From Mesotaenium endlicherianum (taxonomy: Eukaryota), in contig WELA01002286.1 in the NCBI GenBank assembly GCA_009602735.1, positions 104,409 to 168,408 on the forward strand: DNA of 64,000 nucleotides, in the 5' to 3' direction. This document shows, in pieces, positions 6,732 to 31,885 of the stretch. Position 1 is the stretch's first letter, and every line of letters starts with the position of its first letter. The notes under the pieces were generated by a model that was given only the letters and a program-made list of their open reading frames with translations, was not told the DNA's origin and made no database searches. A program made the position numbers and the translations under genes.

Positions 6732-6736
6732 TCCGC

Positions 6737-6760
6737 CTCCACTCCACTCCACTCCACTCA
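6737..6760 (+). repeat. (CTCCA)n microsatellite just after the rhodanese stop
   Basis: ctccactccactccactccactca read directly. Confidence 0.8.
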
Positions 6761-8240: not shown

Positions 8241-8564
8241 ATATCAGTAGAGTCCTAGGCCTGGTATGCCATCCACGTCCAACAATGTTATGCTCCTTAA
8301 CGTGAGCATGTGCACCCAAATGTCCAGGGGGCCTAGGTGGCCAACCAATGCAACAACAATTTGCCAATAAAAAATCATAAAAAGTAATCATACCAAAAAA
8401 TATAAATTTTCCATGGAGGTTAAAGGCCTGGTTAACAATGTCCAACTACTCACACTCCAAATAACAAAAAATGCTATTAACGCTGGGGCTGGCCATAAGG
8501 CCCCTGGAAGTTTGCTACCTGAGCTGGTGCTAGCAAAGGCTGCCTCTGTTGGGGGCCTGGGCCA

Positions 8565-10000: not shown

Positions 10001-11340
10001 CTAGTCTAGAAGGGCAGCAACGGCTGTTGCAGCGTCGCGACTAATACTCTCTAACAAAGTGCTATACTCGTCGGCTAAGCCCTGCACAGTGGCCTGGGAG
10101 TAGAGGTCGGTGTTGTAGACAAAGAGCCCCTCGAGCCCGCCTCCGGGCAAAACCTTCACCCCCAAGCCGATCTCCGACTTGGCAAACTCATACCCTGCCT
10201 GATCTGCGGGCTCCACCACCAGACCTGGAAGGCCCGACGTGCCGAGGCCGCCTTCATAGTCCACCTCGTCCAGCGTGAACCCTGTCTGGACCAGGGAGGC
10301 CCTGCTTGTGTCAGCGGCAGCAGAATCCGGGACCAGTGCCTCCACAACGCGGACAAATGGCACGTCCTGGTTGTCAAACGCCTCCAGCACACGCACCCTG
10401 ACTTGGGCCAGGAGGTCCACGAACGTGACACCTGGCGCAAACGTGGCAGCTGCCACCACTGTGTTCACAAACATGCCCAGCAGAGGCTCCAGCTGCGCCC
10501 GCACACGGCCTGCCACGTCAAACGCCACCAGGACCTTCTCCTGGTTGGTGCGGATGTGCAGCAGCGCCTGGTACGCCGCCAGCAGCACCATGAACAGCGT
10601 GCCGCCGTGCCTCTGGCCGACCCTGCGGAGGCCCTGAGCCACCTCTGCGCCGACCACAACCGTCACGCTGCCCCCCCGGTGGCCGAGCACGACTGGCCGC
10701 TCCCAGTCCGTCGCCAACTGCAGCGGAGCCGGGTTGAGGCCTACTACGTCTTGCCAGTACGCCAGCTGGCGATCCAAAAGCGCACCAGACACGAGCTGCC
10801 TGTGCCACAGAACGTAGTCGCCGTACTGCACCGCGAGCGGTGGCAGCCCATCCAGAGACTGCAACTTGTAGCAGTGCGCCAGCTCGGCGCAGAACGGCTC
10901 CGTGGACTCGCCGTCAAATGCCAAGTGGTGCATCGTGAGGAGAAGCACGTGCTCATTCGGTCCCAACGCTATCACGAGGCCTCTGATGGGCAGCGACTGC
11001 GGATCCGTCAGCTGGAAGGGCTTGTTTGCCTCCTCATTGGTCATCCTCGTCACCTCAGCGCCCTGCGTCTCCCCCTCCGGCAGCTCCGAAATGTCCACGA
11101 GCGGCAGCCTGAGTGGCACCTCACCTGCCGGCCGCACAACCTGCACCACATCCCCGCCTTCCTTCACACGGTAGAACATCCTGAGGGACTCGTGCCTGTC
11201 TACTATGAGGCTGACAGCTGTCTCCAGGCGCACCACGTCTAAATCCCCTCTGACCCTCCATGCATAGGGTATGTTTTCACTGCCAGGTGTCTGCAGCTCC
11301 TTGGTCCACGTGATCTTCTGGGGTCCACTCAAGGGCAGCT
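10001..11340 (-). other. NRPS terminal condensation domain
   Basis: MHHLAFDGES (10925-10930), QLAYW, FMVLLAAYQALL, GMFVNT, NQDVPF, FVYNTDLYS, then a stop. No TE or reductase domain follows. Confidence 0.9.
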
Positions 11341-14300
11341 CCCCGTTCTCAAGGCCCGACCGATCCATGGCTGTCAACGGGGGGCCCTGCTCGCCCACCT
11401 TGGAGCCGGCCAGCGCTGCGGCCACGCCTGCCACCGTGGAGTCCTTGAAGAAGACGCTCATGGGGAGGCTCTTGTGCAGCTGCTCCGTCAGCATGGCCAG
11501 CACGCGCACCGCCATCAGGCTGTTGCCGCCCATGCGGAAAAAGTCCGTGCTTGGAGTGACACCTGGCCCTGCGACAGTGCCCAAGACCTCTGCAAAGACT
11601 CCCGCCACCACCTCCTCCTGCTGGCTGAGGGGCCGAGCGGGGCCCTGCGTGGAGGCGCCTCCACCTGTCAAAAACGCTTCCCTCGTAGGCGGCGGCAGCT
11701 TCTTGCGGTCGATTTTACCCGACACGGTCTGCGGGAACTCGTCCATGACCACATACGCCGACGGAATCATGTAGGAGGGCAGCTTCGACACAGCCAGCTG
11801 CTGGACGGCGTGCGCGTCCAGGAGAGCCTCCACCCGGCCTGCACTCTCTGCCAGTGCCGGAGTGAAGTAGGCCACTAGGCACTGCTGCCCGTTGGCATCC
11901 GCCCTCACTGCCACAGCGGCCTGCCCGATCCCCGGCGCCGACGCCAGCACATTCTCGATCTCCCCGAGCTCGATGCGGTTGCCCCTCAGCTTCACCTGCC
12001 ACGCGGCGAAAGGAGAAGAATGATCTCACAGCCCAACAGTTCCTCGGTGCACACCTTGCTTGGCTGCATGTGCGCACACTACTCACACACACCGCTACCA
12101 CGAGCGCCGCCCGGCTGCATATACCAAACGCTGGCACCCAAAAACACATACTGACACACAAATAGACATAATCATAGCATGGAAACACGGAGAAAATGAT
12201 GACGAGCAACGTTTGTGTGTTTTGGGGTAGTTATATGCCAGGCAGTGGGCACTAGGTGGGAGCGAAGGAGCAAGCACAAGGGGCCATGCGGCTTACCTGC
12301 GAGTCCATGCGGCCGAGGAACTGCAGGTGGCCGCTGGGCAGCCAGCGGCAGAGGTCACCCGTGCGGTACATGCGCGCGTCGTGCGCCCCCGTGCTGTACG
12401 GATTGGGGACGAACTTCTCCGCCGTCAAATCGGGCCTGCCCAGGTAGCCCTCTGCCACCTGGATGCCGGCAATGCAGAGCTCTCCCGGGACGCCAACTGG
12501 CAGCAGTTCCGCATGGGGCCCCAGCACAAACGGATACACGTTGGCCAGGCCCTTCCCAATGGTGTCGAACACCTCATCCCCTGCTCCCCAGAGCATGGCC
12601 GTGGCGGTGACGGCTGTCTCCGTGGGGCCGTAGCCGTTGACGCACGTCACGCCCTCGTCAGTCCACTTGCGGATGAGGGACACGGGCACGGCCTCCGCGC
12701 CCAGATCAATGACCTTGAGGCCGGGCGTCTGGGCGGGCTGCAGCGTGGCCACCACCGTGGGCGTGGAAACAGCGTATGTCACCCGGTTGGTCCGCAGGAA
12801 CGCGCCCAGGTCCGTCAGCAGCTCCTCCTTGGAGCAGATTGCGAGCGGCACGCCGTACGCCAGTGCCAGGAACACCTCTTGGACGTGCACGTCGAAGACG
12901 CTGGGTGCCAGCTGGGCCACACAGGTGTCGGCATCCCAGGGCAGGAGGGCCTGGTATGCGCGCACGAGATTGACGACTGACCTGTGCGCCAGCTGCACGC
13001 CCTTGGGCTCGCCCGTGCTGCCGCTCGTGAACAGCACGTAGCAGATGCTCTCGGGCGTGGGCCTGTGCGCCTCCAGGTCCACGTTCCCATGTCCTGCTCC
13101 TGCAGCAGGCTCCTCCAGCGCATCGAGCGCCGTGACCTCCACGCCCTGCTCCGACGGCAGCCAGGCCAGGAGCTCCAAGTGGGCCGCTCCGGACAGCACC
13201 ATCGCCAGCCCCGCCTGCCGCACGATGCTCTCGGTACGCAGCCGCGGGTATGACGGCTCCATGGGCACGTAGCCGCCGCCCACCATCAGCACGCCCAGCA
13301 TGGCCGCCACCCACTCAACGCTGCGGTCAAACACGAGGCCCACCAGCTTGCTGGCCTGCCCCTTGGCCGCCACGTGCGCCGCCACACGCCGCGCCAGCCG
13401 GTGCACTTCCGAGAAGGTGGCGCTGCGGGCCCCATCCACGACGGCCACCCGCGACGCGTCCTTGGCCACCTGCGCCTCGAACAGCTCCACCAGCGTCGCG
13501 GCGGCCACCTCCCCTCCCTGCTCCTGCTCCTCCTCCCCGGCCCCGTCGCTGGCCAGGCCCGCAAACGTCCTCAGGACCAGCTCGCGTTCGTCCGGCTGCA
13601 TGACCGCCAGCTGGCTCAGCGGCGAGGCGGCGTCTCTGCAGATGGAGCGCAGAAGCTCCTGGAAGTGTGACGCCAGCCGCTCGGCGGTGGCGGGGGCGTA
13701 CAGGTCGGCGTTGTAAACGAGCTCCCCGCTCAGGCCGCCATCCTCGACCGTCTCAAGCCCCAAGTCCAGCTCGAACTTGGCGGAGACGCCGCCGCCCCCG
13801 TCCAGCGTGCCCAGCACCTCCACCCCAGCCAGCTGAAGGTCGCTTTCCAAGCTGCCCTTGCCCTCCTCCAATGAGAACATGGTCTGGAAGACGGGCGACC
13901 TGCTGGAGTCCCGCGTGGCCGACACCTGCCCCACGACCTTCTCAAAGGGCACGTCCTGGTGGTCCAGCGCCCCCAGCACGCGCGCCCTCACGTGCGCCAG
14001 GAGGTCCGCAAAGCTCGCCTCTCCCCTGCCCTCTGCAGCCCCCTGAGCCGCCAGGAGCTCGAAGTCAGCCACCGCCACGACCGTGTTTACGAACAAGCCC
14101 ACCACTGGCTCCAGCGCCGCCCTCACCCTGCCGGCAGTGGGGAAGCCCACAATGACGCGCTCCTGCCCCGTGTAGCGGTGCAGCAGCGCCTGGTACGCCG
14201 CCAGCAGCACCATGAACAGCGTGCTGCCGTAGCGCGCCGCCACCTGACGCAAGGCCTCCACGGCCGCCGCCTCCAGCGACACCCTAACGGTCGCGCCCCT

Positions 14301-17300
14301 GTGGCTCTCCACGCCCGGGCGCACGAAATCTGTGGCTAGCTGCAGTGGCTCGGGGTCCACGCCCAGGAGCTCCTTCCAGTAAGCCAGCTGGCCCTCCAGC
14401 ACCGCGCCCGACATGTAGCGACGCTGCCAGACGGCGTAGTCCACGTACTGCAGGGGCAGTGCGGGCAGCCCCTCCGCCGACCCGTCCTTCTCGTAGCAGT
14501 GGGTGAGCTCCTCAAAGAAGACGCCTGCGGACTCCCCGTCAAACGCAATGTGGTGCATCGTCAGCATCACTATGAAGCGGTCCCCGCCCTCCCGGACAAC
14601 GGCCCCCCGAATGGGCCAACTGTCGGGATCGTTGAGATCAAACGGCGCGGCCGCCTCCTCCTCCACCAGCGCCTCCACCTCCGCCGCCTTCCCCTCCTCC
14701 GGGCGGCCGGAGACGTCAAAAACGGCCAGCTTGAACGGCCGGCTGCCCGCGCCTGCAGAAGACCGCACAAACTGCAGGGGCACGCCCGCCCTGCTGCTGC
14801 CATAGGTCGTGCGCAGCACCTCGTGCCTCGCGACGACGGCCGCCAGCGCACGCTCCAGCCGCGCAACGTCCAGGGCCCCGCTTACGCGCCATGCGGCGGG
14901 CATATTGTAGTGGGAGGTGCCCCCGCCTTCGATCTGGTCCATGACCCACATGCGGTCCTGCGCGAAGCTCAGTGGCAAACCCCCGCCGTCGTCGGCCGCC
15001 ACGGCCGCCCTGTCCACCACGCCCAATGGGGGCTCCTCCTTCCCCGACGAGCGCAGGGCGGAGACAAGGCCGGCCACTGTTGAGTTGTGGAAGAAGTCGC
15101 CCACGGTGAGGCTCTTGCCCAGCCGCTCCCGGACCAGCGACACCACGCGGATGGCCATGAGGCTGTTGCCGCCCAGCCCGAAAAAGTCAGACCGCGCGCT
15201 GATGCCCTTGGCGCCGCCCACGGTCAGCACCTCCGCAAAAATGCCGGCCACCATCTCCTCCTGCACCGTCAGCGGCCGCGCGCTCCCCCCGCCGGCCGCA
15301 CCCGAGGCCGAATAGAACGCCTCCGCCGTGGGCGGCGGCAGCTTCTTGCGGTCGATCTTGCCTGACACCGTCTGCGGGAACTCATCCAGCACCACGTACG
15401 CGGTGGGCACCATGTAGCTTGTCAGCTTGGAGGCCGCCACCTGACGCACACCCTCCACGCTGAACGCCGCCCTGTCCTCAGGGCAAAGGTACGCCGTCAG
15501 GTGGTCCCACCCGGCCTCGTCCTTCTTCACCAGCACCACCGCCTGGCCCACGCCCGGCGCCTGGTCCAGCACGTTCTCTACCTCGCCCAGCTCGATGCGA
15601 TTCCCCCGCAGCTTCACCTGCAGACATGCCAGGGCAGATCAGATTCAGGCTCCGCCCACATACAAAGAGATAACGACCTCGTCCTGCACACCTGCAACCG
15701 TGTGAGGTGTTGGTGGCAGGTAACACTGTGCAGCAGTCATGCAGGTGCACTCCATAAGGAGAGGCCGGCGCCTGCTTTGGTCCCCTTCTCCCTTCACACA
15801 TGCATAGAGTGCGACAACAGCTGCGCTGTTGCCTTACAAGTGCAGCAGTCCCTTCGCCCCCCGGCAGACAACAGGACAGTGTAGGCATGCCACTCACTTG
15901 CGAGTCCATGCGGCCGAAAAACTGCAGGTGGCCGCTGGGCAGCCAGCGGCACAGGTCGCCCGTGCGGTACATGCGCGCGTCGTGCGGCCCCGTGCTGTAC
16001 AGATTGGGGACAAACTTTTCCGCTGTCAAATCGGGCCTGCCCAGGTAGCCCTTGGCCACCTGCACGCCCGCGATGCACAGCTCGCCCGGGACGCCGATGG
16101 GCAGCACCTCCCCGTGGTGCGCGCCCAGCACCAGCGGGTAAACCTGCGGCAGGCCGGTGCCGATGGTATCAAATACGTCGGCGCCCGCCTCCCAGAACAC
16201 GGCGGTGGCCGTCACCGCCGTCTCCGTGGGGCCGTAGCCGTTGACCACCGTGGTGCCCGCGTCTGTCCAGCGGCGGATGAGCGCCACGGGCACGGCCTCC
16301 GCGCCCAGGTCCAGCACCTTCAGGCAGCTGGCCTGGCTGGGCTGCAGCCCCGTGGCGAGCGTGGGCGACGTCACCAGGTACGTCACGCTGTGCTGCGACA
16401 GGAACGCGCCCAGGTCCGTGAGCAGCTCCTCCTTGGAGCAGACGGCCAGCGTGGAGCCGCACGCCAGCGCCAGCCACACCTCCTGCACGTGCACGTCAAA
16501 CACCGACGCCGCCAGCTGCGCCATGCAGGCCGTCGCGCCCGCCGGCAGCAGCCTCCGGTACGCCTGCACCAGGTTCACCACCGAGCGGTGCGCCAGCTCC
16601 ACGCCCTTGGGCTCGCCCGTGCTGCCGCTCGTGAACAGCACGTAGCAGCTGTCGTCGGGCGAGGGCTTGCACGCCGTCACCTGGCTCTCTTCTCGGGGCT
16701 CCGCCGGGGGCAGATCCGTGACATCCACCAGCACCAGGGGCACCGCCGCCGCAGCCATCCAGGCGAGGGCGTCCAGGTGCGCGGGCGTGGTAAGCACCAG
16801 GCTTAGCTGCGCCTGCTGCGACACGCTCTCCATGCGCCCTCGCGGGAACGTGGGCTCCATGGGCACGTAGCCGCCGCCCGCCATCATGATGCCCAGCATG
16901 GCCGCCACCCACTCCACGCCGCGGTCCATCACCAGCCCTACCAGGCGGCCGCCCTGGCCCTGGGCAAGAAGGAATGCCGCCACCTGGAGGGCGAGCGCAT
17001 GCACCTCCTGGTAGGTGGCACTGCGCTCCCCCGACAGCACAGCCACCTTCTGTGGGGACGCCGCCGCGGAGGCCAGGAACAAGTCCACCAGCGTCTCCTC
17101 GTAAGTCTCCACCTCCCTGCCCCCGCCGGAGAACTTGTGTAGCACCATGGCCTGCTCCTCCGCGCCCATCAGCGCCAGCTGGTGCAGGGGCAAGCCGGCT
17201 GCAGCCGCGGCCGCCCGCAGGAACTGCTGGTAGTGGCCAGCCAGCCGCTCCACTGTCTCCTGCGAGAACAGGTCCACGTTGTACTCGAGGACACCTGTCA

Positions 17301-20300
17301 GCGTGCCGTCGCCCTCCTTCTGCAGGCTGAGGTCGATCTCGAACTTGGCGGCACCCATCTCCTCCGCCAGGCTGCCCGTCACAGCGACACCTGGTAGCGT
17401 GATAGTGCTCGCTTCCGCCAGCGTGAACATCGTCTGGAAGACCGCGGACCGGCTGGGGTCGCGCACCGTCACGACGTCGGCCACCACCTTCTCGAAGGGC
17501 ACGTCCTGATGGTCCAGCGCCTCCAACACGCGCGCACGCGTCTGCTTCAGGAGCTCCAGGAACGTCACCTCGCCCTTCTCTCCAAAGTCGGCAACGGCCA
17601 CCACGGTGTTGACGAAGAGGCCCACAACGGAGTCCAGCTGCGCCAGAGTGCGCCCGCCCACAGGGATGCCCACCAGCACGCGCTCCTGCCCCGTGTAGCG
17701 GTGCAGCAGCGCCTGGTACGCCGCCAGCAGCACCATGAACAGCGTGCCGCCCGTCTGCTGCCCCAGCTGGCGCAGGTCCCTGGCGAGCGCGGCATCCACA
17801 GAAAAGTGCACGCTGGCGCCGCGGAAGCTCTGCTTGATCGGCCGCGGGAAGTCCAGTGCCAGCTGGAGCGGCTCGGGGTCGACGCCTATCAGGTCCTTCC
17901 AGTACACCAGCTGGCGGCTCAGAGCAGCCCCCGACATGTACTCCCTGTTCCACGCCGCAAAGTCTGCATACTGCAGCGCCACGGGCGGCAGCGTCTCCGC
18001 ACTGCCCCCCTGCTCATAGACGTGTGCGAGCTCGCGGAAGAAGACGGCGCTAGAGCCCTCGTCGAACGCGATGTGGTGCACCGTCAGCATCAGCACCCAG
18101 CTGCTGGCCCCGCATTTGGCCACACGCCCACGCATCAGCAGGCTGCTCGTGTCATCTATGTGGAAGGGCGTCTGCGCCTCCTCCAGGAACAGCCACTCCA
18201 CCTCCGCCTCCTGTTCCTCCGGGGCCAGAGGGGCCAGGTCCACGACAGGTAGACTGAAGAGGCTTGCCTTGTCCTCCTCCAGCACTACCTGCTCACACGC
18301 GCACACACACAGGCACACGCAGATGGCATCGTCGTCTTTAGGAGCAGCAGGAGGTGCTGTCTCAAGGAAGAGCAAGCCGTGAGTGCACAGGGGAGCAGGC
18401 CATGCCAGGCAAGGAAGGCTCTCTGAGTCGAGCTTCATTTCATGCCATCGCTGAAAGTAGGCCCCACCCGACAGGAAGGGGGTCACACACCTGGACAGGG
18501 GTCCCATCGTGGCTGGCGTAGAGCGTGCGCAGGGCCTCGTGGCGCGCGATGAGAGCGCGCACGGCCGACTCCAGGCGGGGCACGTCCAGCGCGCCCTCGA
18601 TGCGCCACGCAAACGGGATGTTGTAGTGGGCGCTGCCCCCGCCGCCCTCCAGCTGGTCCATGGCCCACATGCGCTCCTGCGCAAAGCTGAGCGGCAGCCT
18701 GCCCCCGTCCCCGGCCAGGAGGAGCGCCCTGTCCAGCGGGACGAGGGGCGGAGGCGCCGCACCGCCGCTGTCGGCACCGCCGCTGGCGTTGACGGCGGTC
18801 GCAATGCCGGCCACGGTGGAGTCGTGGAAGAAGGTGCCCACGGTGATGGCGCGCCCCACGCGCTCCTTCACCAGGCTGATCACCTTGATGGCCATCAGGC
18901 TGTTGCCGCCCATGGCAAAGAAGTCGCTATGCGGCCCGACGTCGGCGATAGCGTCACCGCCGCCTGCGAGGCCCAGCACCTCCGCAAACACGCCGGCCAC
19001 CACCTCCTCCTTCTGCGTGAGCGCGCGCTCGCCTGCCTTGACGGCGCCGCCCGACAGAAATGCCTCGGGCGGGGGCTGGGGCAGGTTCTTGCGGTCCACC
19101 TTCCCCGACACGGACTGCGGGAAGTGCTCCATGAGCATGTACGCGCTGGGCACCATGTACGTGGGCAGCCGCGAGGCCGCCACTTGGCGCACGGCCGCAA
19201 TGTCCACTGTGGATGCCTCGCCAACGGAGGGCCTCACATACGCCGCCAGAAAGAGCTGCTGCCCTTCGTCCTTCCTCACCATCACAACCGCCTGGCCCAC
19301 CCCCGGCGCCTGGCAGAGGGCGTTCTCGATCTCCCCCAGCTCTATGCGGTAGCCGCGCATCTTCACCTGCACCACGCACCAGGGCTCGGTTGTCAGCAAC
19401 ACTACCACATCCTCCAGGGGGCCCACCACTGACGGACTTGTCTCTGCTCACTCACTCTCACGTCACAGGGAAGGGCAGGGAGGCGGGGGTGGCGGGCACC
19501 GCACCTGAGAGTCGAGGCGGCCGAGGAACTCGATGTGACCGCTGGGCAGCCAGCGGCAGAGGTCGCCCGTGCGGTACATGCGCGCGTCGTGCGGGCCCTT
19601 GCTGTACGGGTTGGGCACAAACTGCTTAGCCGTCAGCTCCGGCTTGTTGAGATAGCCCTGCGCCACCTGCACACCGGCGATGCAGAGCTCACCAGGAACG
19701 CCCACCGGCAGCACTTCCTGGGTCTTGCGGCCCAGGATGAAGGCATACACCCCGGGCAGCGAGGCCCCGATGGTGTCGTACACCTGCGCCCCCGCCTCCC
19801 ACACCATGCGCGTGCACGTCACCGCCGTCTCCGTGGGCCCGTACGAGTTGACGACCAACACGCCCGCGCTGGTCCACCGTGCGATGAGGCTGACCGGCAC
19901 GGCCTCGCCGCCCATCTCCAGAAACTTCAGCCCCGGCGCCTGCGACGGCTGGATGGTGGCCACCACCGTGGGCGTGGCCTGGATGTACGTGGTGCGCGTG
20001 CGCTCCAAGAAGCCCGGGAGGTCCGTCAGCAGCTCCTCCTTGGAGCACACGGCCAGCGCGGCGCCGTGGCTGAAGGCCAGCCACACCTGGTGCACGTGCT
20101 GGTCGAACACGGCGGGCGACAGCTGGCCCACCACGCTGCCCTCGTCCAGCGGCAGCAGGTGCAGGTACGACTTGACCATGTTCACCACCGAGCGGTGCAC
20201 CAGCTCCACGCCCTTGGGCTCGCCCGTGCTGCCGCTCGTGAACAGCACGTAGCAGATGCTCTCGGGCGTGGGCCTGTGCGCCCGCAGCGCCGCTCGCTCG

Positions 20301-23300
20301 CCCTCGCTCACGGGCGGCATGTCGGCCACCACCGCCACCTCCACGCCCTTCTCCGCCGTGAGCCACCCGAGGCCCTCCGCGTGCTCTCCTGACGTCAGCA
20401 CCAGAGCCAGCTTGCCCTGGCTGGTGATGCTCTCCACCCTCAGGCGCGGGAACGACGGCTCCATGGGCACGTAGCCGCCGCCCGCCATCATGATGCCCAG
20501 CATGGCCGCCACCCACTCCACGCCGCGGTCCATCACCAGCCCCACCAGGTGGGGAGCATCCTGGCCGCCGCTGCCGCCTCTGCCTTTGCCAGCCCCGGCG
20601 GCGGCGCTGCGCCGAGACGCCACAAAGCAGGCCACGCGCTCGGCGCGCGCGTGCATCTCCGCGTACGACACCTGGCAGACGGCGGCATCCACGACGGCCG
20701 TGGCGTCGGGGCGCGCGCGCACCTGCGCCTCGAACATGTCCCACAGCGTCTCGGAGTGCACGGCCACGGGGCGGTACACGCCGGAGAACTTGTGCAGCAC
20801 CAGCGACTCCTCGTCCGCGCGCATGAGCGGGATCTCGTGCAGCGGGTCCTTGGCGTTACGCGGGATGCAGCGCAGCAGCTCCCGGTAGTGCCCCGCCAGC
20901 CGCCGCATGCTGGCCGCCGAGTACAGGTCCGTGTTGTACTCCACCACGCCCGCCAGGCTGCCGTCCGCCTGCCGGTCCAGCGACAGCTGCAGCTCAAACA
21001 TGGCCGCTGCCGACCCGAACGAGAGTGGCGTGACGTCCGCGCCCGCCACAAATTGGCTGTTGGAGCTAGAGATGGCGGCGCCCGCGCCCTCGTCCAGCGA
21101 GAACATCGTCTGGAAGACCGCGGACCGGCTGGGGTCGCGCACCGTCACGACGTCGGCCACCACCTTCTCAAAGGGCACATCCTGGTGGTCCAGCGCCTCC
21201 AGCACGCGCGCGCGCGCCTGCTGCACCAGCTTCACGAACGACAGGTGGCCGCCGTCACCGCCCTCAAAGTCGGCCACCGCCACGACCGTGTTGACGAAGA
21301 AGCCCACCAGGCTCTCCAGCTGAGGGTGCACGCGTCCGGCCACGGGGATGCCCACAATGACGCGCTCCTGCCCCGTGTAGCGGTGCAGCAGCGCCTGGTA
21401 CGCCGCCAGCAGCACCATGAACAGCGTACCGCCCGTCTGCTGCCCCAGCGCCTGCAGCGCCGCCACAGCGTCCGCGTCCACAGAGAGGCTCACGCTGGCG
21501 CCGTTGTGCGTTTGCTTGGCGGGGCGCACAAAGTCGGTGGCCAGCTGCAGCGGGTCCGGGTTTGGGCCGATGAGCTTGCGCCAGTACGCCAGCTGCTCCT
21601 CCAGGCGCGCACCCGACACGAAGGTGCGGTGCCAGATGGCAAAGTCTGCGTACTGCACGGCCATCTGCGCCAGTCCCTCGGCCGTCGAGAACTCGTAGCA
21701 GTGTGCCAGCTCGCGGAAGAATACGCTGTTGGACACGCCGTCGAACGCGATGTGATGCACCGTCAGCAAGAACACGCACGACGCTGCTGTCGCGTTCTCC
21801 TCCTCCTTCAAGTCCTCCTCCACCAGGACGCCCCGCAGCGGCAGTCCCGCCGGATCGTTGAGGTCGAAGGGCGCCAGCGCCTCCTTCCTGGCCAGACGCC
21901 GCACGGCCCCGTCCTCCTCGCCTTCCGCGCTGGCACCGCCCCCGTCAGCCTCCGACAGACGGAGGGTGCGGATCTTGACCTCCACGTCCTCGGCCCGGCG
22001 CACGATCTGCACAGGCGCGCCCTCCACCGTTGCAAAGTAGGTGCGCAGGATCTCGTGGCGGCCCAATAGGGCCGTAAGCGCTTGCTCCAGGCGCCCCAAG
22101 TCAAGGTGCCCGCGAATGCGCCAGGCAAAGGAGATGTTGTAGTGCGCGCTTCCACCCTCCAGCTGGTCCATGGCCCACATGCGCTCCTGCGCAAAGCTGA
22201 GCGGCAGCTTCCCGTCCTTAAACTGCGCGCGCGCTACGGCCGTGAGCGCGGGCCCCTTGCTGATGGCGCGGCCCGCGTGGATCTGCGAGGCCACGCCCGC
22301 CACGGTGGAGTTCTGGAAGAAGCCGGCCATGGAGATGCTCTTGCCCAGCCGCTCGCTGATCAGCGCCAGCACGCGGATGGCCATCAGGCTGTTGCCGCCC
22401 AGCCCGAAGAAGTTGGCGTGCGGCCCAACGCGCACGCTGGCCTGCAGGCCCAGCACCTCCGCAAAGATGCCGGCCACCACCTCCTCCACCTGCGTCATCG
22501 TGCGCTCGTCGCCCAGCGCCAGGCCGCTTGTCAAAAAGGCGTCGCTGGTGGGCTCCGGCAGGCGGCGCCGGTCCACCTTGCCCGAGACGGAGTGCGGAAA
22601 CTCCTTGAGGACCACGTACGCGGCGGGCACCATGTACGCCGGCAGGCGCGACGTGACGGCCGTGCGCACCTCCCCAATGTCCACCTCCACGCCCGAGTGC
22701 GGCCGCAGGTACGCCGCCAGGTACTGCTGCTGCTGCGCGCTGTCCTTGCGCAGCATGGCCACGGCCAGGCTCACGCCAGGCGCCTTGCAGAGCGCGTTCT
22801 CAATCTCGCCCAGCTCGATGCGGTTCCCCCGCAGCTTCACCTGCACACGCAGCAGCCGCCACCGCCACCAGCAGGACAAGGGTGAGGGCGGGGGCCGAGG
22901 ATGCGAACAAGGGCAGGGTATATTGCTGGGGGGGCAAAGCATGCAGCTGCCCGGCAGCAGCGGCTTCACCATTGTATGTAGCGGCAACAACAGGGTGGGG
23001 CTGGGGGGCAGGCCGGCTGACCTGCGTGTCGATGCGCCCGAGGATGTGGATGGAGCCGTCGGGCAGCCAGCGACAGAGATCGCCCGTGCGGTACATGCGC
23101 GCGTCGTGCGGGCCCTTGCTGTACGGGTTGGGCACAAACACCTTGGCATTCAGGTCAGCCCTCCCCAGGTAGCCCTCAGCCACCTGCACGCCAGCCAGGC
23201 AGAGCTCCCCCGGCACGCCGATGGGCAGCAGCTCCTGGTGCGCACCCAGCACGTACGCATACACGTGCGCCAGGGGCCCACCGATGGTGTCCGTGGGCTC

Positions 23301-26300
23301 CGACCCCGCTGCCCACACAGTGCGCGTGACCGTCACCGCGCACTCCGTGGGACCGTACGAGTTGACAACTGTCACGCCTGCTCGCGTCCACCTGGCAATG
23401 AGGCCCACAGGCACGGCCTCACCGCCCATCTCCAGCACCTTGAGGGACGGCGCCAGAGACGGCTCCAGCAGGTCGGCCAGCGTGGGCGTGGCCTGGATGT
23501 AGCACACGTCGTGGCGCGACAGGAACCCCGCCAGGTTCGTCAGCAGCTCCTCCTTGGAGCACACGGCCAGCGCGGCACCGTGACTGAAGGCCAGCCACAC
23601 CTGGTGCACGTGCTGGTCGAACACGGCGGGTGATAGCTGGCCCACCACGCTACCCTCGTCCAGCGGCAGCAGGTGCAGGTACGACATGACCATGTTCACC
23701 ACCGAGCGGTGCGCCAGCTCCACGCCCTTGGGCTCGCCCGTGCTGCCGCTCGTGAACAGCACGTAGCAGATGTCGTCCACAGACGGCCCGCCGTGCGCAG
23801 CCACCTGCGCCGCGTCGCCTGGCGCGGGCGCCAGCGTGTCCACATCCAGGACGCTCACGCCCGCCCCGCCCATCCAGTCCAGGCCGGCCAGGTGCTTGGC
23901 GGTGGTGAGCACAAGCGCCAGCCGTGCCTGGCTGGCAATGCTCTGCATGCGCACCACCGGATAAGACGGCTCCATGGGCACGTAGCCGCCCCCCGCCATC
24001 ATGATGCCCAGCATGGCCGCCACCCACTCCACGCCGCGGTCCATCACCAGCCCCACCAGCAGGCGCGTGCCCCGCCCCCCTTCTCCCTCCTGCTGCAGCT
24101 GCTGCTGCTGCTGTTGGCGGTGGTGCAGGACGGCGGCAGCGACGGCCGTCGCCTTCTCGTGGAGCTCGCGATAGGTCACGCGGCCAACGGCGTCGTCAAT
24201 GACGGCCACGGCCTCGGGCGCCGCGCGCAGCCGCGCCTCAAAGAGGTTTACCAGAGTCTCGGGGTACGCCTGGAACGGCACCTGCGCGCCGCTGAAGCGC
24301 TCCAGGACCAGGGCACGCTCCGCCTCGTCCGTGAAGGGCAGCGCCTGCAGGGGCACGCCCATGTCGGCGTCGCGGGCGGCCGCAAACGCCAGCAGCTGGC
24401 GGTAGTGGCCCGCCATGCGCTCCACAGAGGCCTGCGAGTACAGGTCTGTGTTGAACTCCAGGCAGCCGCCCACACTGCCGTCGTCGCGCTTGCTGAGCAT
24501 CAGGTTGAGCTCAAACATGGCGGCGCCGGTGAACGTGGGGATGGGCGTCACGGCCTCCATGCCCGGCAGCGCCAGCGAGGCGCCCTCGCCCAGCGTGAAG
24601 CCCGCCTGGAAGACGGGCGAGCGGCTGGGGTCGCGCACCGTCACCAGCTTGCCCACCACCTTCTCAAAGGGCACGTCCTGGTTGTCTAGTGCCTCCAGCA
24701 CGCGCGCGCGCGTCTGCTCCAGCAGCTGCAGGAAGGTCAGGCCCTTCTCGCCCGGCGCCGCGTCCGCAAACTCGGCGACGGTGACCACCGTGTTGACGAA
24801 GAGGCCCACGAGCGGCTCGATCTGCGCACGGATGCGCCCGGCCACGGGGATGCCCACCAGCACGCGCTCCTGCCCCGTGTAGCGGTGCAGCAGCGCCTGG
24901 TACGCCGCCAGCAGCACCATGAACAGCGTGCCGCCCGTCTGCTGCCCTAGCGCCTGCAAAGCCGCCACCTGGGGGGGGTCTAGATGCAGCGGCACGTAGC
25001 TCCCGCTGTGCGTCTCGCGCGACGCACGCACGTAGTCCGTCACCAGCTGCAGCGGCTCGGGGTCCTGGCCAATGAGGCCCTCCCAGTAGCCCAGCTGCTG
25101 GCTCAGCAGGCCGCCGCCGCTGCCCACGTAGGCGCGGTGCCACACGGCGTAGTCCACGTACTGGATGCTCATGCGTGGCAGGCCCGCCAGGTCGCCGTGC
25201 TCGTACAGGTGCGCCAGCTCGTGGAACAGCGTGCCCTCTGCGCCCTCGTCAAAGACGCTGTGGTGCAGGGTGAGCAGCACCACGTGCTCGCGCGCACCCG
25301 CGCGGATAACGGCGCCGCGCACCAGCAGGCTGCGCACGTTGCCGAGGTTGAAGGGCAGCTGCGCCTCCTGCCGCACCAGACGCTGGATCTGCAGCTCCTT
25401 CTCGTCAACGTCGCCATCGCCGTCCAGCTCGAAGACGGGCAGGTTCATGGTGGAGTCCTCCACGGGGCGCACCGTCTGCACGGGCACGCCGTCCTCCGCC
25501 TTGTACACAGTGCGCAGGATCTCGTGGCGCTCCAGCAGCAGGTTCAGCGCGCGCTCCAGCCGCGCCACATGCAGGGGCCCGCGCACGCGCCACGCGTACG
25601 GCAGGTTGTACTGCGAGCTGCTGCCGTCCAGCTGATCCATGACCCACATGCGCTCCTGCGCGAAGCTGAGCGGCAGGAAGCCCTGCCGGTACTGCGCGCG
25701 GTCGATGGCCACCAGCGGCGCGCCCGCGGCCTTGACGGAGTCGCGCCCCGCCAGCGCGCTCGCCACGCCTGCCACCGACGACTGCTTGAAGAACTTGCCC
25801 ACCGTAAGCGTCTTGCCCAGCCGCTCGCGCAGCAGCGCTATCACTTTCACTGCCATCAGGCTGTTGCCGCCCATCTCGAAGAACCCAGCCCCCGCGGGGA
25901 TGTCCGCCGCCGCAGCCGTCCCCAGCACCTCCGCAAACACGCCCGCCACCGCCTCCTCCTCTGGAGTCCTTGCCCTCCTGTCCCCCTCCTCCTCCCCCTG
26001 CTCGCCTCCCTCAAAGCCGCCCCCGGGGATGTGGAACGCCTCGGGCGGCGGGGGTGGCAGCTTCTTGCGGTCCGTCTTGCCGGAGACGGTCTTGGGGAAC
26101 TCGTCCAGCACCACGTAGGCAGCGGGCACCATGTAGGCAGCCAGGCGCTTGACGGCCGTCTCGCGCACCAGGCGCAGGTCCAGCGGCGTGGCGGGGTCCA
26201 CGGGGCTCACGTACGCCACCAGGCTCTGCTGGAACACGGTGCTGATGGCCTTGGCCACGCCGGGCGCCTGGCACAGCACGTTCTCGATCTCGCCCAGCTC

Positions 26301-29300
26301 GATGCGGTTCCCCCGCAGCTTCACCTGCCCACGCAGCAGCCGCCACCGCCACCAGGCCGGGATGCTCAGTCACCTACCCTTTTGCTACTTTCGTTTCACA
26401 CCCTCCCTGCTTCCCCCCAGTTTCTCTCCTGGGGAGCAGAGTGGAAGCTTTATCTCCCTGAGGTAGCAGAGATATGCATGCATGCGCACCACCTGATTGC
26501 TCAAGGGGTGCCAGGCTTGCAACCGACCCACTGACTGACGCACGGCACTACCCTGTGGAGGACATCCCAAACAACACTAGCGTCGCGTCCCGCCACTGGG
26601 GAGGAGGAGGGGCGAAGGGGGATGGGCAGAGAGAGCGCACCTGGAAGTCGATGCGACCGAGGAAGTGGATCTGGCCGTCCGGCAACCAGCGGCAGAGATC
26701 GCCCGTACGGTACATGCGCGTGTCCAGGCTGCCGTTGGCGCCGCTGCCGCCCATGGCGCTGAGGCCGCTGCTGTAGGGGTTCATGGCAAACTGCTTGGCC
26801 GTGGCCTCCGGCCGGTTGAGGTACCCCTGCGACACCTGCACGCCCGTCAGGCACAGCTCGCCCGGCACGCCGATGGGCAATGCCTCCAGGTGGGGCCCCA
26901 GCACGTATACGTTGACACCTGGCAGGCTGCGGCCGATGGTATCCACCACGCGGTCCCCCCGCTTCCAGACCTTGTTGAGAGCAGTGACGGCGCACTCCGT
27001 GGGACCGTAGCCGTTGACGACTGTCACGCCCTCGGCAATCCACTTGGTGATGAGGGGCACGGGCACAGCCTCCCCGCCAAATTCCAGGATCTTGAGGGTG
27101 GGCGCCTGGCTGGGCTCCAGCAGCGCAACGACTGTGGCCGTGACCTGGATGTACGTCACGCGGTGGCGCATGATGAAGGCCCCCAGGTCCGTCAGCAGCT
27201 CCTCCTTGGAGCACACGGCCAGCGCGGCGCCGTGCCCGAGCGCCAGCCACAGCTGCTGCACGTGCAGGTCGAACACGGACGGCGCTACCTGGCCTATGAC
27301 GTCGGCCTCCGTCAGCGGAAGCTGCGCCAGGTAGGACTTGACGATGTTCACCACCGAGCGGTGCGTCAGCCGCACGCCCTTGGGCTCGCCCGTGCTGCCG
27401 CTCGTGAACAGCACGTAGCAGGCGCTGTCCAGCTCGGGCGCGCACGCGGGGACCGCGTCGAGCGCCCCCGGCGAGACGTCCGGCAGCGCCCTGAGGTCCA
27501 GGAGCGCCACGCCCTTCTCCTCGCGCTGCCACGCCAGGTCGTCCGCGTGCTCCGTGGTGGTGAGCACAAGCGTGAGCCCCGTCTGGCGGATGATGCTCTC
27601 CATGCGCAGCCGCGGATACGACGGCTCCATGGGCACGTAGCCGCCGCCCGCCATCATGATGCCCAGCATGGCCGCCACCCACTCGATGCCACGGTCCACG
27701 ATGAGCCCCACCAGCTGGCGCCCTGCCCCCGCCAGCCCCCCCTGCGCGCGCCCGTGCTCGGCCACGAGGGCGGCCACGCGGAGCGCCAGGTCCTGTAGCG
27801 CCATGTACGTGATGGTGCGCTCGCCGTCCACCACGGCCACGTTGCTGGGCGTGCGCGCGCACTGCGCCGCAAATAGGTCCACCAGCGTCTCGCGGTGGGG
27901 CGCGTAGGGGCGTGCGGCACCCGAGAAGGTCTGCAGCACCGTGTGCATTTCCTCTAAGCCCATCACGCGCAGCTCGTGCAGCGGCGCGCTGGCGCTCTTG
28001 CCCGCGGACGCCGCCAGCTCCTGAAAATGCGCCGCCAAGCGCTCCGCCGACTCGCGCAGGTACAGGTCCGGGCGGTACTCCAGCACGCCGCTCACGCTGC
28101 CATCTGCGCTCTCGCTCAGAGCCAGCGCCACCTCCGCACCCCCCCAGCCGTCCCGGGCATCGTTGTCGCCGCCTGCCAGCTGGCTGACGACGCGGCTGCC
28201 TTTGACGAGCCGCGCGCTGCTGAGCACAAACGCCGCCTGAAAGAGGGGCGCGCGGGCCGGGTCGGGCGCGGATACCAGGGCGCGCACAAGCTCGCCCAGC
28301 GGCAGGTCGCGGTGCTGCACCGCGTCCATAAGCTGCTCCCTCATCTGCTGCACCAGCTCGATGAACGTCATGGCCTTGCCCTCCTCGAAGGTGCCGACTG
28401 CCACCAGCACGCCACCGTTTGCCTGGCTGGCAACGGCGCCTGGCGCCTTCGAGGCAGCCCCTATAGGGAGCCCTACAGACAAGCGCTCCATCCCGGTGTA
28501 GCGCTGGAGGAGGGCGGCAAAGGCAGCCAGCAGGACGGTGAAGAGGGTGGCGCCCTGGCGGTGCGCCAGGCCATCCAGGGCATGGACGACGTCGGCGCTG
28601 ACCTGGACGCTGATCTGGGCCTTGTGGTGGGTCAGCACGTTGGGGCGCGGCAGGTCCGCCACCAGCTGCAGGGGCTCGGGGTCGCCCTCGATGAGCCCCG
28701 TCCAGAAGGCCAGCTGCTCCGGCGCCGAGAACTTCCTCCTGCTGGCCGCTTTCAGGATCTGCCAGTGGGGGGGAGAGCACAGTTGGTGGCTCGCTTCGTC
28801 ACAGGTTCCACCATGTGCGGAGAAAGGGACAGTTGTTGCACCCTTGATCAAGCAGCATTCCCAATAGCGTACGACCATACGTTTCACTGACAACAAATAC
28901 TTGATGCTCACAACCATTGAGGGAAAGTGAAATTGAGTCACACGGGAAGCACTGCCCAAGCGCGTGCCCATGATCCGATTCAGAAAGAGAGAGAGAGGGA
29001 GAGAGAGAGTGTGACCTGGGCAATCCAAGAGGGGAAGACGGCGTGCGCGTCGCCGTCCAGGCCCAGGGAGACAGCCAGTCCCTGCAGGCCCTGCGCCAGG
29101 CCTTCGTGCGTCACCTCCACCGCGCTCCCCTCCTCGCTGTCGTACTTGAGATAGGCCAGGCTGCGCAAGGAGGCCTGCGGAGCGGAGTCGCGCCCATTCT
29201 GGTGCCCGTTCATGTCGCCATTCTCCGCATGCTTCCCGCTTGGCGGCTCGCTGGGAGGGACATCGATGAGTCGAGGAGTGGCAGCGCTGGTCTTGCATTG

Positions 29301-31885
29301 GCTGCCACCGCGACTGGGCAGGCCGCCACTAGTAGACTCCGTCGGCTGCACAAGCCAGCAGCGAGGATCAGCGGCTGTAATGAGTGCTATCTGCAGCCCA
29401 GTCTTGATGATGACAACACACCCCCCCGGCTGCTGTGACATCACTCGGTTGTCCTTCCCTCTCTCCATCTCCAGGTTGAGCGCACCCCCCCGCAGACTGA
29501 CTCCTCATCCACACTCTGCGACTGCCATGCAGTGGGTCAAGGGAGGGGCAGGCTGCAGCACCCAGTGCCCTCCCTCCCAGCTGCTGCAAAGCCCATGAGG
29601 AGAAGGGAAAGGGGATGACTCATGAGCATGAGCAGCAACGGCAGCACTGGATCGAGAAATCAGGAGCGCAGGCTGGGGGAGCACTAGCACCTGTCGGGGC
29701 GAAGGGGAGGGGGAGGGGGAGCTGGGGGAGGAGGAGGAGGCGAAGCTGTTGGGCAGCACATGCAGCTGCTGCGGGGCGCCTCCTCCCTCCCGCGAGCTCA
29801 GCGCCTCCACAAACTCAAAGTACTCCGCAGTTGTCAGCCCGGCAGTCACGCCGCTTGCCGCCACCACTGCGGTCAGATGCTCCGCCAGCAGATCGGACAG
29901 CTCCGGGAGCTCGACCGGCACGGGGACCACACCTGGCAGCACCATAGCAGGGCGCCACAGCACTTGCCACCCGGCCAGTCAGCCCATCGTCGCACCCACC
30001 ATCTGCAGGGCGCCCGGTGCCAAGAGAGGCCTGGGAGGGGGCTCAGATGGAGGCGCTGGTTGGCAGTAGACCTGAGCTCTAATCAGTAGCAGCAAGGGAG
30101 CTTGACACGCCCCCAGACAGAGAGAGGGACACCTGTCATCCCGCAAGAGAGGAAGCACAGGGACGGCCAGGCAGGCCCTTCCTGGACAACCGGCCACAAG
30201 TGTGACCTGGAGGACGAGAACAATGGCATAGAGAAGAAGGGAGGGCGCGGACGAGGAACACACTGGGTGGCAGACATGGGTAAACCCCCCCCCACCCCCC
30301 CCCACCNNNNNNNNNNNNNNNNNNNNNNNNNNNNNNNNNNNNNNNNNNNNNNNNNNNNNNNNNNNNNNNNNNNNNNNNNNNNNNNNNNNNNNNNNNNNNN
30401 NNNNNNNNNNNNNNNNNNNNNNNNNNNNNNNNNNNNNNNNNNNNNNNNNNNNNNNNNNNNNNNNNNNNNNNNNNNNNNNNNNNNNNNNNNNNNNNNNNNN
30501 NNNNNNNNNNNNNNNNNNNNNNNNNNNNNNNNNNNNNNNNNNNNNNNNNNNNNNNNNNNNNNNNNNNNNNNNNNNNNNNNNNNNNNNNNNNNNNNNNNNN
30601 NNNNNNNNNNNNNNNNNNNNNNNNNNNNNNNNNNNNNNNNNNNNNNNNNNNNNNNNNNNNNNNNNNNNNNNNNNNNNNNNNNNNNNNNNNNNNNNNNNNN
30701 NNNNNNNNNNNNNNNNNNNNNNNNNNNNNNNNNNNNNNNNNNNNNNNNNNNNNNNNNNNNNNNNNNNNNNNNNNNNNNNNNNNNNNNNNNNNNNNNNNNN
30801 NNNNNNNNNNNNNNNNNNNNNNNNNNNNNNNNNNNNNNNNNNNNNNNNNNNNNNNNNNNNNNNNNACCCCCCCCCCGTTTTCCAGAAAAGAATTAAAAGA
30901 AAACAAAATGACAGCAATCGGCCCGCTGCTACCGAAGCTAGTGAAGCACTTGCGCAGCAGCTTGCAGACAGGCAAAGAAGCCCAGCTGCTGCAGCGGTCA
31001 GGCGATCCCGCCTGGCTCAAAATGCTCGAGGCAAAGAGCCCCTAGTCAGATCTTGGGCGTTTTAACTCACAGTATCTAGACTGCGCCCGTTACGTGATGT
31101 GTGTATACATTCACATTTCCATAGGGCAGGGGGCGGGGGTGACATCCCTTAATTATGCTTCTGACGACCCGGGTGCACAGCCAGCTGAGAAGGTACCAAA
31201 AATAGGTTCACGGTCCCACCCTTAGGCCCCCTGCCTTGCGTGCGACTGTGTCTGCTCTGTCCCTTACCTGTCAGGTAACACAGCGGGTATCTGAGTGAAA
31301 AGGAAGGGAAAGGGGGCACTTTTAGTACGCATCTCATTGACGTCAGACAACTCCCAGCTAGCTACTCCAGCCCAGGGTCAAAGAATACCGGCGCTAGGCT
31401 GAAGATCAGAAATGGCCTTCTTCTTATTCACACTGACCTGCATATAGACATGCGAGAAATGTGCATGCCAGCTGTGGTCCAGGAGGAAATGCGAGGAGGA
31501 CACGCGTCTCTCTTCTGATCTGCAAGACGGCAGTCAGCTGTTGCTCCACTGCCAGGACCTTCTGGCGGAGATCCTTGTACGTGCAGGTAACCTCATCGCT
31601 ATGTCCATTCACAACCGGAATGCCAACTGCACCGGGCGTCCTTCGGGATATCGACAACCAACGGAGGGCGACGTCATCGGGGTAATTGATGGCAGCTTCT
31701 TCTAAGAAAGAGATTAGAGTCTGAGGGGAGTGCTTTGATATTCCCCCACTGGTGCCATGACTCTGCAGCCAGATTGGACTGTTACTGAAAGATCGAGGAC
31801 TACTAGCAAATCCATGACTAATCCGTCTTATTAATGCACCATACGGTGGAGCTCTTTCTATATTCAGAGGGTAAGCAGGTGCCAT
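10001..31885 (-). CDS. Five-module NRPS, ~6,119 aa, 10 exons: 31885-31438, 29932-29691, 29345-29016, 28758-26641, 26324-23022, 22840-19505, 19366-18491, 18288-15898, 15617-12297, 11995-10001
   Basis: Five A domains (YVLFTSGSTGEPKG, N[G/S]YGPTE, RMYRTGDL, GRxDxQVK, SGKxDR), five T domains (FFxxGGNSL) and five full C domains (HHxxFD[G/E]) plus a half C. All nine junctions are GT-AG and phase-compatible, with no internal stops in the spliced frame. Exons 4-10 are high confidence; the exon 2/3 boundaries are inferred. Confidence 0.93.
11410..14980 (-). other. NRPS module 5: C-A5-T5
   Basis: C MHHIAFDGE (14550-14555), A5 FDVHVQE, T5 FFRMGGNSL (Ser 11519-11521). Boundaries approximate. Confidence 0.92.
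15055..18705 (-). other. NRPS module 4: C-A4-T4
   Basis: C VHHIAFDEG (18073-18078; this C has a private intron 18490-18289), A4 FDVHVQE, T4 FFGLGGNSL (Ser 15162-15164). Boundaries approximate. Confidence 0.92.
18790..22210 (-). other. NRPS module 3: C-A3-T3
   Basis: C VHHIAFDGV (21752-21757), A3 FDQHVHQ, T3 FFAMGGNSL (Ser 18899-18901). Boundaries approximate. Confidence 0.92.
22285..25680 (-). other. NRPS module 2: C-A2-T2
   Basis: C LHHSVFDEG (25260-25265), A2 FDQHVHQ, T2 FFGLGGNSL (Ser 22388-22390). Boundaries approximate. Confidence 0.92.
25750..28758 (-). other. NRPS module 1: C-terminal half of a C domain + A1 + T1
   Basis: Starts at EQLAFW...PLQLVADLPRP with no HHxxxD lobe. A1 has FDLHVQQ. 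T1 is FFEMGGNSL with the Ser codon at 25860-25862. Boundaries approximate. Confidence 0.88.
28985..29009. repeat. (GA)n microsatellite in NRPS intron 3
   Basis: agagagagagagggagagagagag read directly. Confidence 0.75.
29016..31730 (-). other. NRPS N-terminal FAAL (fatty acyl-AMP ligase)-like domain, truncated and degenerate (exons 1-3)
   Basis: TLISFLEEAAINYPDDVALRWL...TYKDL...VLLAFPPGPQLACTFLACLYA|GVVPVP...HLTAVVAASGVTAGLTT...LAYLKYDSEEGSAVEVTHEGL...FPSW is colinear with the N-terminal half of FAALs. The TSGSTGxPKG loop is lost and the domain stops at the SW(LP) position. Confidence 0.75.
30307..30865. other. Assembly gap (559 N) flanked by poly-C runs, within predicted NRPS intron 1
   Basis: Run of N with C-homopolymers on both sides. 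Confidence 0.99.

Follow-up and report, generated by a model that had tools for sequence, protein, structure and literature searches.

A 64,000-nucleotide stretch of the alga Mesotaenium endlicherianum (class Zygnematophyceae, Streptophyta; contig WELA01002286.1, positions 104,409 to 168,408, hereafter the window) carries on its minus strand, at 31885-10001, a gene for a nonribosomal peptide synthetase (NRPS) that resides in the nuclear genome of this green lineage and is transcribed and spliced there. Streptophytes, land plants included, are to our knowledge generally taken to be without assembly-line peptide synthesis. The explanation that best covers the observations as a whole, and on which our judgement is evenly balanced, is a resident zygnematophyte NRPS of five modules, likely making one five-residue peptide that is likely released as a ring through the terminal condensation (C) domain, C5. 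Taken by itself, a working five-module line with release by C5 appears probable from the sequence; within such a line, analogy tips the scale modestly towards a ring over a capped or linear product. Both enzymatic function and a five-residue product are suggested by the intact motifs and by expression of the gene.

Gene structure and domain order

Ten exons splice to a frame of 6,119 aa (~653 kDa) without internal stop, with a coding length of 18,360 bases and nine introns, all of them GT-AG. The first-pass annotation had proposed a spliceable frame of ~6,119 aa with nine such introns, and an independent splice model reproduced it exactly. Motifs and Pfam matches place the domains in the order FAAL remnant, half C domain (C0), a first adenylation (A) and carrier (T) pair, four C-A-T modules and a final C, which amounts to 15 whole and 2 partial domains. 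The features of the gene are listed below.

31885-10001, minus strand: NRPS gene, 10 exons, 6,119 aa (splice model, RNA)
31885-31438, 29932-29691, 29345-29016, 28758-26641, 26324-23022, minus strand: NRPS exons 1-5
22840-19505, 19366-18491, 18288-15898, 15617-12297, 11995-10001, minus strand: NRPS exons 6-10
29016..31738, minus strand: FAAL remnant, aa ~50-340, exons 1-3; degenerate P-loop, ends at intron 3
29933..31437, minus strand: intron 1, 1,505 bases, holding a 559-N gap; removed whole in RNA
27970..28758, minus strand: C0, half condensation domain, C-terminal lobe present, HHxxxD lobe lacking
25749..27897, minus strand: module 1, A1 (aa 628-1138, DLQQEGGVTK) and T1 (Ser1201); intron 4 at 26640-26325
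22277..25676, minus strand: module 2, C1 (HHSVFDE), A2 (DQHQEGSVTK) and T2 (Ser2298); intron 5 at 23021-22841
18788..22207, minus strand: module 3, C2 (HHIAFDG), A3 (DQHQEGSVTK) and T3 (Ser3415); intron 6 at 19504-19367
15051..18697, minus strand: module 4, C3 (HHIAFDE), A4 (DVQVDGGVTK) and T4 (Ser4500); intron 8 at 15897-15618
18490-18289, minus strand: intron 7, private to C3 of module 4
11408..14978, minus strand: module 5, C4 (HHIAFDG), A5 (DVQVDGGVTK) and T5 (Ser5614); intron 9 at 12296-11996
10004..11338, minus strand: C5, full-length terminal C (HHLAFDG), LCL-derived, gate Arg replaced; candidate release domain

By every sequence test the protein is a member of the linear multimodular NRPS family. 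Core motifs A3, A5, A7, A8 and A10 were identified in all five A domains, which keep the P-loop, YGPTE, YRTGD, GRxDxQ and the A10 lysine, and TIGR01733 exceeds its cut-off in all three scanned exons holding an A core. Each of the five T domains combines a PF00550 match with the phosphopantetheine serine of GGNSL, and HHxxxD is present in C1-C4 between the modules and in the terminal C5. The earlier claim that the A core motifs, the five serines and the five HHxxxD motifs are intact is therefore confirmed by motif and Pfam scans. TE, R, E and MT families gave no match in the ten NRPS reading frames scanned with Pfam. The sole gap of the window, 559 N at 30307-30865, on which the first-pass annotation is silent, sits inside intron 1. 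The first 50 residues (31738-31885, minus strand) are rich in Ser, Arg and Pro with one acidic residue, a possible organelle targeting peptide; a polyglutamine insert in A2 (24090-24125, minus strand) attracts stray reads, and A1 and A3 have Gly-rich inserts at the same loop.

The N-terminus retains parts of a lipid starter. Bacterial FAAL-NRPS proteins align at their N-terminus with residues ~50-200 (best E 9e-10, local search), and FAAL-type proteins give weak PDB and NCBIfam matches to the remnant. Behind a low-complexity insert, the P-loop reads LAYLKYDSEEG against LAFLQYTSGST, and the remnant is cut after the WLP-equivalent motif; it ends at intron 3, and C0 takes over there with its C-terminal lobe. 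C0 spans Pfam positions 193-452 only, with the catalytic lobe absent, and no PF00550 carrier domain lies upstream of A1. The FAAL named in the first-pass annotation thus survives as FAAL sequence at the N-terminus, but as the N-terminal part alone; its P-loop is broken, and no carrier protein follows. A synthetase of the FAAL-initiated lipopeptide type was considered and ruled out, there being no complete FAAL with an intact P-loop, no acyl carrier protein (ACP) and no catalytic lobe in the starter C domain. Bacterial FAAL-ACP-C-A-T synthetases (PRK05691/PvdL-like; P0070, P0074, P0101, P0106, P0354) have in common with the algal protein an N-terminal FAAL followed by NRPS modules; in the latter, however, the FAAL is cut after about one third, the P-loop is broken and both the ACP and the first C lobe are gone, so that no lipid start is expected. 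We infer that lipid initiation was lost and that, the FAAL being dead, synthesis likely begins at A1, with A1-T1 starting the chain. By analogy with fungal NRPS, in which non-catalytic C domains occur at the N-terminus (PMC11546977; PMC numbers in this text refer to excerpts of the papers unless a main text is named), C0 may persist as structural support for A1.

Could these losses be part of a wider decay? A line that is transcribed but inactive, or that depends on a partner such as a second A+C+T gene, seems unlikely to us. Such a line would account for the dead FAAL and the half domain C0, for the GC content at third codon positions (GC3) of 0.47 in exon 1 against 0.88 across the whole frame, and for the second A+C+T gene counted in the species (PMC11096116), and C5 could then be the stump of a sixth module; yet all catalytic motifs are intact, the modules are 32-41% diverged but conserved at the motifs, and expression is steady in the RNA runs. 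The 18,360 stop-free coding bases also lie next to broken retroelements, as the first reading had observed in describing an NRPS that stays intact beside degraded transposable elements.

Transcription and residence in the alga

Six of the 24 listed sequencing runs were mapped, and spliced transcripts of the gene are present in the RNA data. Eight of the nine introns appear as RNA read joints, which are absent from all contigs of the DNA run X1; intron 3, not in the joint table because its edge falls in a masked repeat, is skipped by one contig of X5, so that every junction has been seen. Reads in X21 and X24, respectively, number 30 and 34 for intron 9, 11 and 28 for intron 8, 0 and 36 for intron 7, 4 and 43 for intron 6, 2 and 22 for intron 5, 7 and 30 for intron 4, 2 and 15 for intron 2 and 1 and 17 for intron 1, and X5 contigs show seven of those eight introns. 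The reads of intron 1 (17 in X24, 1 in X21), along with one X5 contig, splice across its N gap; the intron is removed whole, and the 559-N gap therefore conceals no constitutive exon.

In a stranded polyA run the first mates fall on the plus strand, that is, they report minus-strand RNA; sense coverage is found in all 30 bins, and depth, ~1-3 near the 5' end, climbs to ~20 towards the 3' end, as a single long transcript would give. In a second polyA sample, X22, depth is 63-115 on the last NRPS exon and 125-167 in the exon-rich bins of a neighbouring rhodanese gene, whose reads come from the opposite strand and serve as strand control. Transcripts are near the level of this neighbour in the mapped runs. 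Nine junctions and continuous coverage extend across the putative 18.4-kb transcript. Six reads of X24 show a back-joint from 26322 to 23020, matching the ends of exon 5, which is probably a mis-mapping between near-identical exon starts, the alternative being a circular RNA.

The public protein P0241 (6,035 aa; source name jgi/Mesen1/1435/ME000131S00500, the Mesen1 tag standing for Mesotaenium endlicherianum, PMC10739892) equals our splice model from residue 150 onward. It opens with 65 different residues from farther upstream (33820-33700 and 32190-32139, minus strand), first exons that lie partly outside the read-mapped stretch. Reads join exon 31885-31438 to exon 2 via the 31437-29933 intron, with no other joint into exon 2, and this read-supported exon 1 corrects the first exons of the public gene model.

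The stretch is contained in 20 of the 24 listed runs (in 19 with at least half its words), which come from 6 studies under one organism label. In the DNA run X3 the rhodanese gene has a contig depth, a rough measure, of 75.6, and four pieces of the NRPS have 73.6-77.8. Two features lie between the NRPS and the start of the window:

8086..9650, strand not assigned: high-copy repeat between NRPS and rhodanese gene, contig depth ~1,500-8,600 against ~60-75 in the flanks
2708..6990, plus strand: rhodanese-domain gene, seven exons, coding sequence 2779-6731, 240 aa; host neighbour used as context and depth control, outside the pathway

According to the first-pass annotation, no gap separates the NRPS from the rhodanese gene. 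This holds in the assembly, but the join crosses the repeat at ~8086-9650, which no listed short-read contig bridges, and the physical link therefore rests on the assembly. This point would favour a gene from a co-cultured eukaryote (fungus or protist), or a mis-joined scaffold, as would the exon GC of ~0.69 against ~0.46 in the flanks (10001-30000 forms a GC-rich block of 0.63-0.71 per kb between flanks of ~0.40-0.55) and a chytrid A domain in a weak sister group. We regard it as highly improbable: X3 depth equals that of the host gene, the runs of all 6 studies carry the one organism label, the exons of the host rhodanese gene are likewise GC3-rich (0.73; 0.81 beyond residue 90), and bacterial C domains, at 38-44% identity, are closer than the chytrid one, at 21-23% and no more than 54 bits. 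The marks of a resident, horizontally acquired gene are all present, namely spliceosomal introns that are used in vivo, a depth at the level of the host and nearest relatives that are bacterial. Splicing, depth and the identity to a streptophyte gene model bear out the earlier placement of the gene in a green-lineage nuclear genome.

In the 32 other window frames scanned with Pfam (each of at least 100 aa; 28 came from a list of 53 and four from the 5' part), the matches were retroelement domains and two weak stray ones; the scan found no NRPS gene cluster and no monooxygenase, acyltransferase, transporter or amine-supplying gene. As to the rhodanese gene, its last exon matches rhodaneses, while three short exons scanned gave no Pfam match; minor splice variants use an intron 1 acceptor 7 bases later and an intron 2 donor 4 bases earlier. 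RNA reads on the repeat at 8086-9650 carry variants of other copies, so the repeat family is transcribed elsewhere, and no clear terminal inverted repeat was found for it.

Relatives and origin of the modules

Three word-based searches and a full HMMER search, with relatives ranked by summed score, returned outside relatives that are 30-48% identical and bacterial wherever named, except for one chytrid fragment. Identities were 32-40% among the best 120 of 2,987 matches (1,928-5,000 aa), 30-39% among the best 120 of 3,698 and 33-48% among the best 120 of 2,116, the 48% extending over 62% of the query; the best 150 of 177,594 HMMER matches comprised the gene itself and otherwise proteins of 31-40% identity. 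Pattern scans confirmed 2 of 166 metagenome, 11 of 88 prokaryote-genome and 0 of 128 viral stretches and found nothing closer, the prokaryote-genome matches being 32-37% identical apart from one 23-residue piece at 70%. Atlas searches returned generic A and C clusters alone. There is no close orthologue among the best-ranked relatives, where a long one of >50% identity would fall hidden in the cluster of P0241, and the second A+C+T gene counted for M. endlicherianum is not among the protein matches ranked here.

The modules resemble one another far more closely. Pairwise identity is 59-68% among A1-A5, against 34-42% to the four best-scoring outside A domains; it is 53-60% among C1-C4, 46-50% between C5 and C1-C4, and 32-42% for C0. 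Trees were built with 304 of 1,631 near-complete A domains and 240 of 1,429 C domains drawn from 514 proteins. The algal A domains form an exclusive clade on a long stem (FastTree support 1.0 with the 304 outside domains; IQ-TREE 100/100 with 29 chosen neighbours), as do the algal C domains (1.0 for C1-C5; 0.993 for C0-C5 on the C-lobe; 240 outside domains), and A2 pairs with A3 (99/97) and A4 with A5 (95/89), as do their codes. A phase-0 intron lies at the same codon in all five A domains; by a rough estimate, six introns falling freely on 80 phase-0 AG|GT sites would strike all five equivalent ones with a chance of 2.5e-7, and a single gain before duplication is the simplest reading. The exclusive clades and the common intron make it likely that a single module, copied repeatedly in place, gave rise to the line. 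Besides, the modules, which elsewhere differ at 35-61% of their synonymous sites, have between them 31 pairs of exact tracts 40-101 bases long, and the 3' ends of introns 4 and 5 (26325-26350 and 22841-22866, minus strand) are near-identical and followed by 42 identical exon bases. Because exact tract pairs link the modules, gene conversion between them, including spread of the intron, is possible.

The nearest relatives are bacterial-type LCL lines rather than fungal ones. Our comparison with bacterial linear LCL NRPS took in myxobacterial, Acidobacteria and Gemmatimonadota proteins and the Txo1/Txo2, TycC and DhbF structures: the C-A-T order, the A core motifs and the gate Arg of C1-C4 are the same, at 30-44% identity per domain, whereas the algal gene is nuclear, has nine introns, lacks TE and R domains and a cluster in the window, consists of modules from one unit and has specificity codes unmatched there. 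A chytrid link (P0423, P0519) was rejected on its support of 86/58 and on the C domain identity given above.

What has been recorded of such genes in algae is sparse. One survey found NRPS in 7 of 32 algae, the largest of 490 kDa, with none listed for Klebsormidium (PMC4661987), and another gives 1-3 NRPS in three chlorophytes and none for Klebsormidium or Chara (PMC7073580). The surveyed genes, among them the 490-kDa, 10-domain protein of Bigelowiella natans and single-C proteins of Chlorella variabilis and Coccomyxa (PMC4661987, PMC7073580), are nuclear too; the gene described here is larger (653 kDa, 15 whole and 2 partial domains) and belongs to Streptophyta. Supplement file 5 of PMC11096116 counts, by Pfam, 2-3 A+C+T genes in Mesostigma, 2 in M. 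endlicherianum and one in 3 of 4 Zygnema assemblies, along with 3 Spirogloea genes with A+C. Its counts of Condensation genes are 6 in Mesostigma, 7 in Spirogloea, 2 in M. endlicherianum and 2 in each case for Zygnema; the rows consulted show none for Chlorokybus, Klebsormidium, Chara, Penium, Marchantia, Physcomitrella, Arabidopsis, Chlamydomonas and Volvox. The table covers the same domain families and the same broad lineage as counts without architecture, and the main text of PMC11096116 contains no NRPS term. The two A+C+T genes of M. endlicherianum in that table probably include ours, and since several streptophyte algae are counted, our gene is not the sole A+C+T case in the lineage. The term is likewise absent from the main texts of 10.64898/2026.02.10.704744, PMC10505561, 10.1101/2023.10.20.563300 and PMC13519894 and from 7 supplement files of PMC11840003. 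We found no text on this gene in the open literature, a scope that leaves aside subscription journals and the supplements of PMC10505561, PMC13126170 and the preprints. The first-pass annotation's word 'undescribed' thus stands insofar as no description was found; algal NRPS as such are sparsely reported, chlorophytes included, and A+C+T genes have been counted in streptophyte algae.

Substrates, release and wider setting

Which amino acids might the line select? Pocket positions were read by motif and by alignment to LgrA, under a numbering that we take to be the standard one, and compared with 1,683 outside A domains. The codes are DLQQEGGVTK in A1, DQHQEGSVTK in both A2 and A3 and DVQVDGGVTK in both A4 and A5. 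The conserved Asp235 points to alpha-amino acid substrates. An acid at position 299 occurs in all five algal domains against 29 of 1,683 outside ones, and His at 237 in all five against 25 of 1,683; as a guess, the acid at 299 might mean basic or polar side chains. Reading the DVQ codes as proline-like, a label we presume, finds no backing in the tree, where that class is among the farthest. Although HHxxxDE has been linked to small acceptors (PMC8097023), its presence in C1 and C3 gives no consistent hint, because C2, ahead of A3 with the same code as A2, has DG.

C1-C4 show the traits of LCL domains, namely the C1 motif with its gate Arg, LCL-type nearest solved relatives and no upstream E domain. 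C5 is full length, ends the protein and keeps HHxxxDG, but has Ile at the gate position, which is Arg in C1-C4 and in 237 of 240 outside domains (the position being placed by the score difference between wild type and R2577G, 54.1 against 51.0 bits); a few residues near it are also altered. The gate Arg has a described role, and the R2577G structure opens the acceptor tunnel (PMC8097023). Its loss in C5 is consistent with a domain to which carrier-bound acceptors are no longer delivered. Terminal C domains can act in release and cyclisation (PMC11546977, PMC10510592), and fungal NRPS ending in such a domain (CT), as in TqaA (PMC11546977), are also eukaryotic, intron-bearing, single polypeptides with an inactive first C and a C domain replacing TE. 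C5 itself differs from the fungal CT: it reads HHLAFDG without the SHxxxD of that class (PMC10510592), its best PDB matches are of LCL type (Txo1, 217 bits, against 26 bits to TqaA CT), and it stands inside the algal C clade as a sibling of the internal LCL domains at 46-50% identity. Fungal CT identity was rejected on these grounds, and C5 would represent a parallel solution rather than a member. HtmB2-CT (PDB 8z0q/8z0r, known to us by title) is the third-best PDB match to C5 at 179 bits, a score reflecting general LCL likeness, since C4 matches it too. A fold model of T5-C5 from a 4-row alignment (pLDDT 60.7, pTM 0.40) is too low in confidence to inform on the acceptor channel.

In the mechanism that we propose, a host phosphopantetheinyl transferase would prime T1-T5. 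With the FAAL dead and C0 without its catalytic lobe, A1-T1 would start the chain with a free amino end, C0 only supporting A1; C1-C4, of LCL type and without an epimerase domain, would add residues in the pattern X-Y-Y-Z-Z, and C5 would take the chain from T5 and close it into a ring, either at the free N-terminus or at an amine of a side chain. Historically, a bacterial FAAL-ACP-C-A-T lipopeptide gene would have entered the alga, its A domain gained one intron and the module been copied in tandem, after which the lipid starter may have been lost and the last C copy become a release domain, in parallel with the fungal CT.

Ring closure is preferred because loss of the lipid starter leaves the N-terminus free. 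The same line might instead join a linear peptide, through C5, to a free small amine, alcohol or water in the manner of VibH, which we consider rather unlikely. The LCL-derived C5 with its canonical HHxxxDG would suit that role; the R2577G structure shows the acceptor tunnel open once the gate Arg is replaced (PMC8097023), although Ile is bulkier than the tunnel-opening Gly; and VibH accepts a small free amine (PMC10510592), whereas no gene supplying one was found in the window frames scanned and the N-terminus stands ready for ring closure.

Under either mode of release the product might be a metal chelator, a siderophore-like peptide of ornithine or lysine type, a proposal that overlaps with our preferred explanation and that we hold to be improbable. 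Siderophore synthetases are found among FAAL-started and C-terminated lines, the acid at position 299 speaks for such a product, and the repeated codes would fit repeated chelating residues. The codes, however, are no closer to what we presume to be the DVGEI and DME/DLE classes than to others, the monooxygenase, acyltransferase and transporter are absent from the scanned frames, and transcripts stay near the level of the rhodanese neighbour, in mapped runs whose growth conditions are not given.

Several observations weigh against a resident line that makes a five-residue ring. Rings of five all-L residues are strained; a free amine entering C5 would explain the lost gate Arg just as well; and because C5 fails the fungal CT tests, its ring closure rests on analogy. 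The best code matches among the outside domains reach 5/9, 5/9 and 6/9 positions, and no substrate class stands out by nearest code or pocket-region identity. Ratios of nonsynonymous to synonymous divergence are moderately below 1 (0.42-0.70 for A pairs, 0.37-0.61 for C1-C5 pairs, 0.61-0.86 for pairs with C0), all values being distorted by the GC3 of 0.88. Support for the sister group of the algal A domains, and with it for any donor, is 86/58. No single read or molecule covers the 18.4-kb transcript from end to end. Finally, X1 and X3 are one sample, possibly the source of the assembly, and depth in X1 varies (63.6 for the rhodanese gene, 74-147 for NRPS exons and 51 for the 5' end of the NRPS gene), which may reflect GC bias.

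More broadly, and tentatively, the gene might represent the first multimodular NRPS pathway of streptophytes, which the alga would have built itself out of a single bacterial module; its pockets would be new and might suit non-protein basic amino acids, its C-domain ring closure would be an independent invention, and it would stand for an unrecognised family of Zygnematophyceae and Mesostigma absent from land plants. It offers a natural experiment in NRPS evolution, in which an intron-marked module was copied five times into three new codes, a lipid starter was discarded and an LCL domain was apparently turned into a release domain, all in a lineage for which we found tabulated counts of such lines but no description. 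For the expression of NRPS in plants, an enzyme already adapted to the green-plant cell would also be a helpful basis.

The remainder of the window holds broken Ty3-type retroelements with reverse transcriptase, RNase H and integrase sequences at 36300-42100 (minus strand), 50100-54800 (plus), 56900-59100 (minus) and 45700-46100 (plus), a chromodomain being present in a plus-strand copy. Sequence resembling a long terminal repeat, noted by eye, recurs at 40-520, 36330-36900 and 41520-42100.

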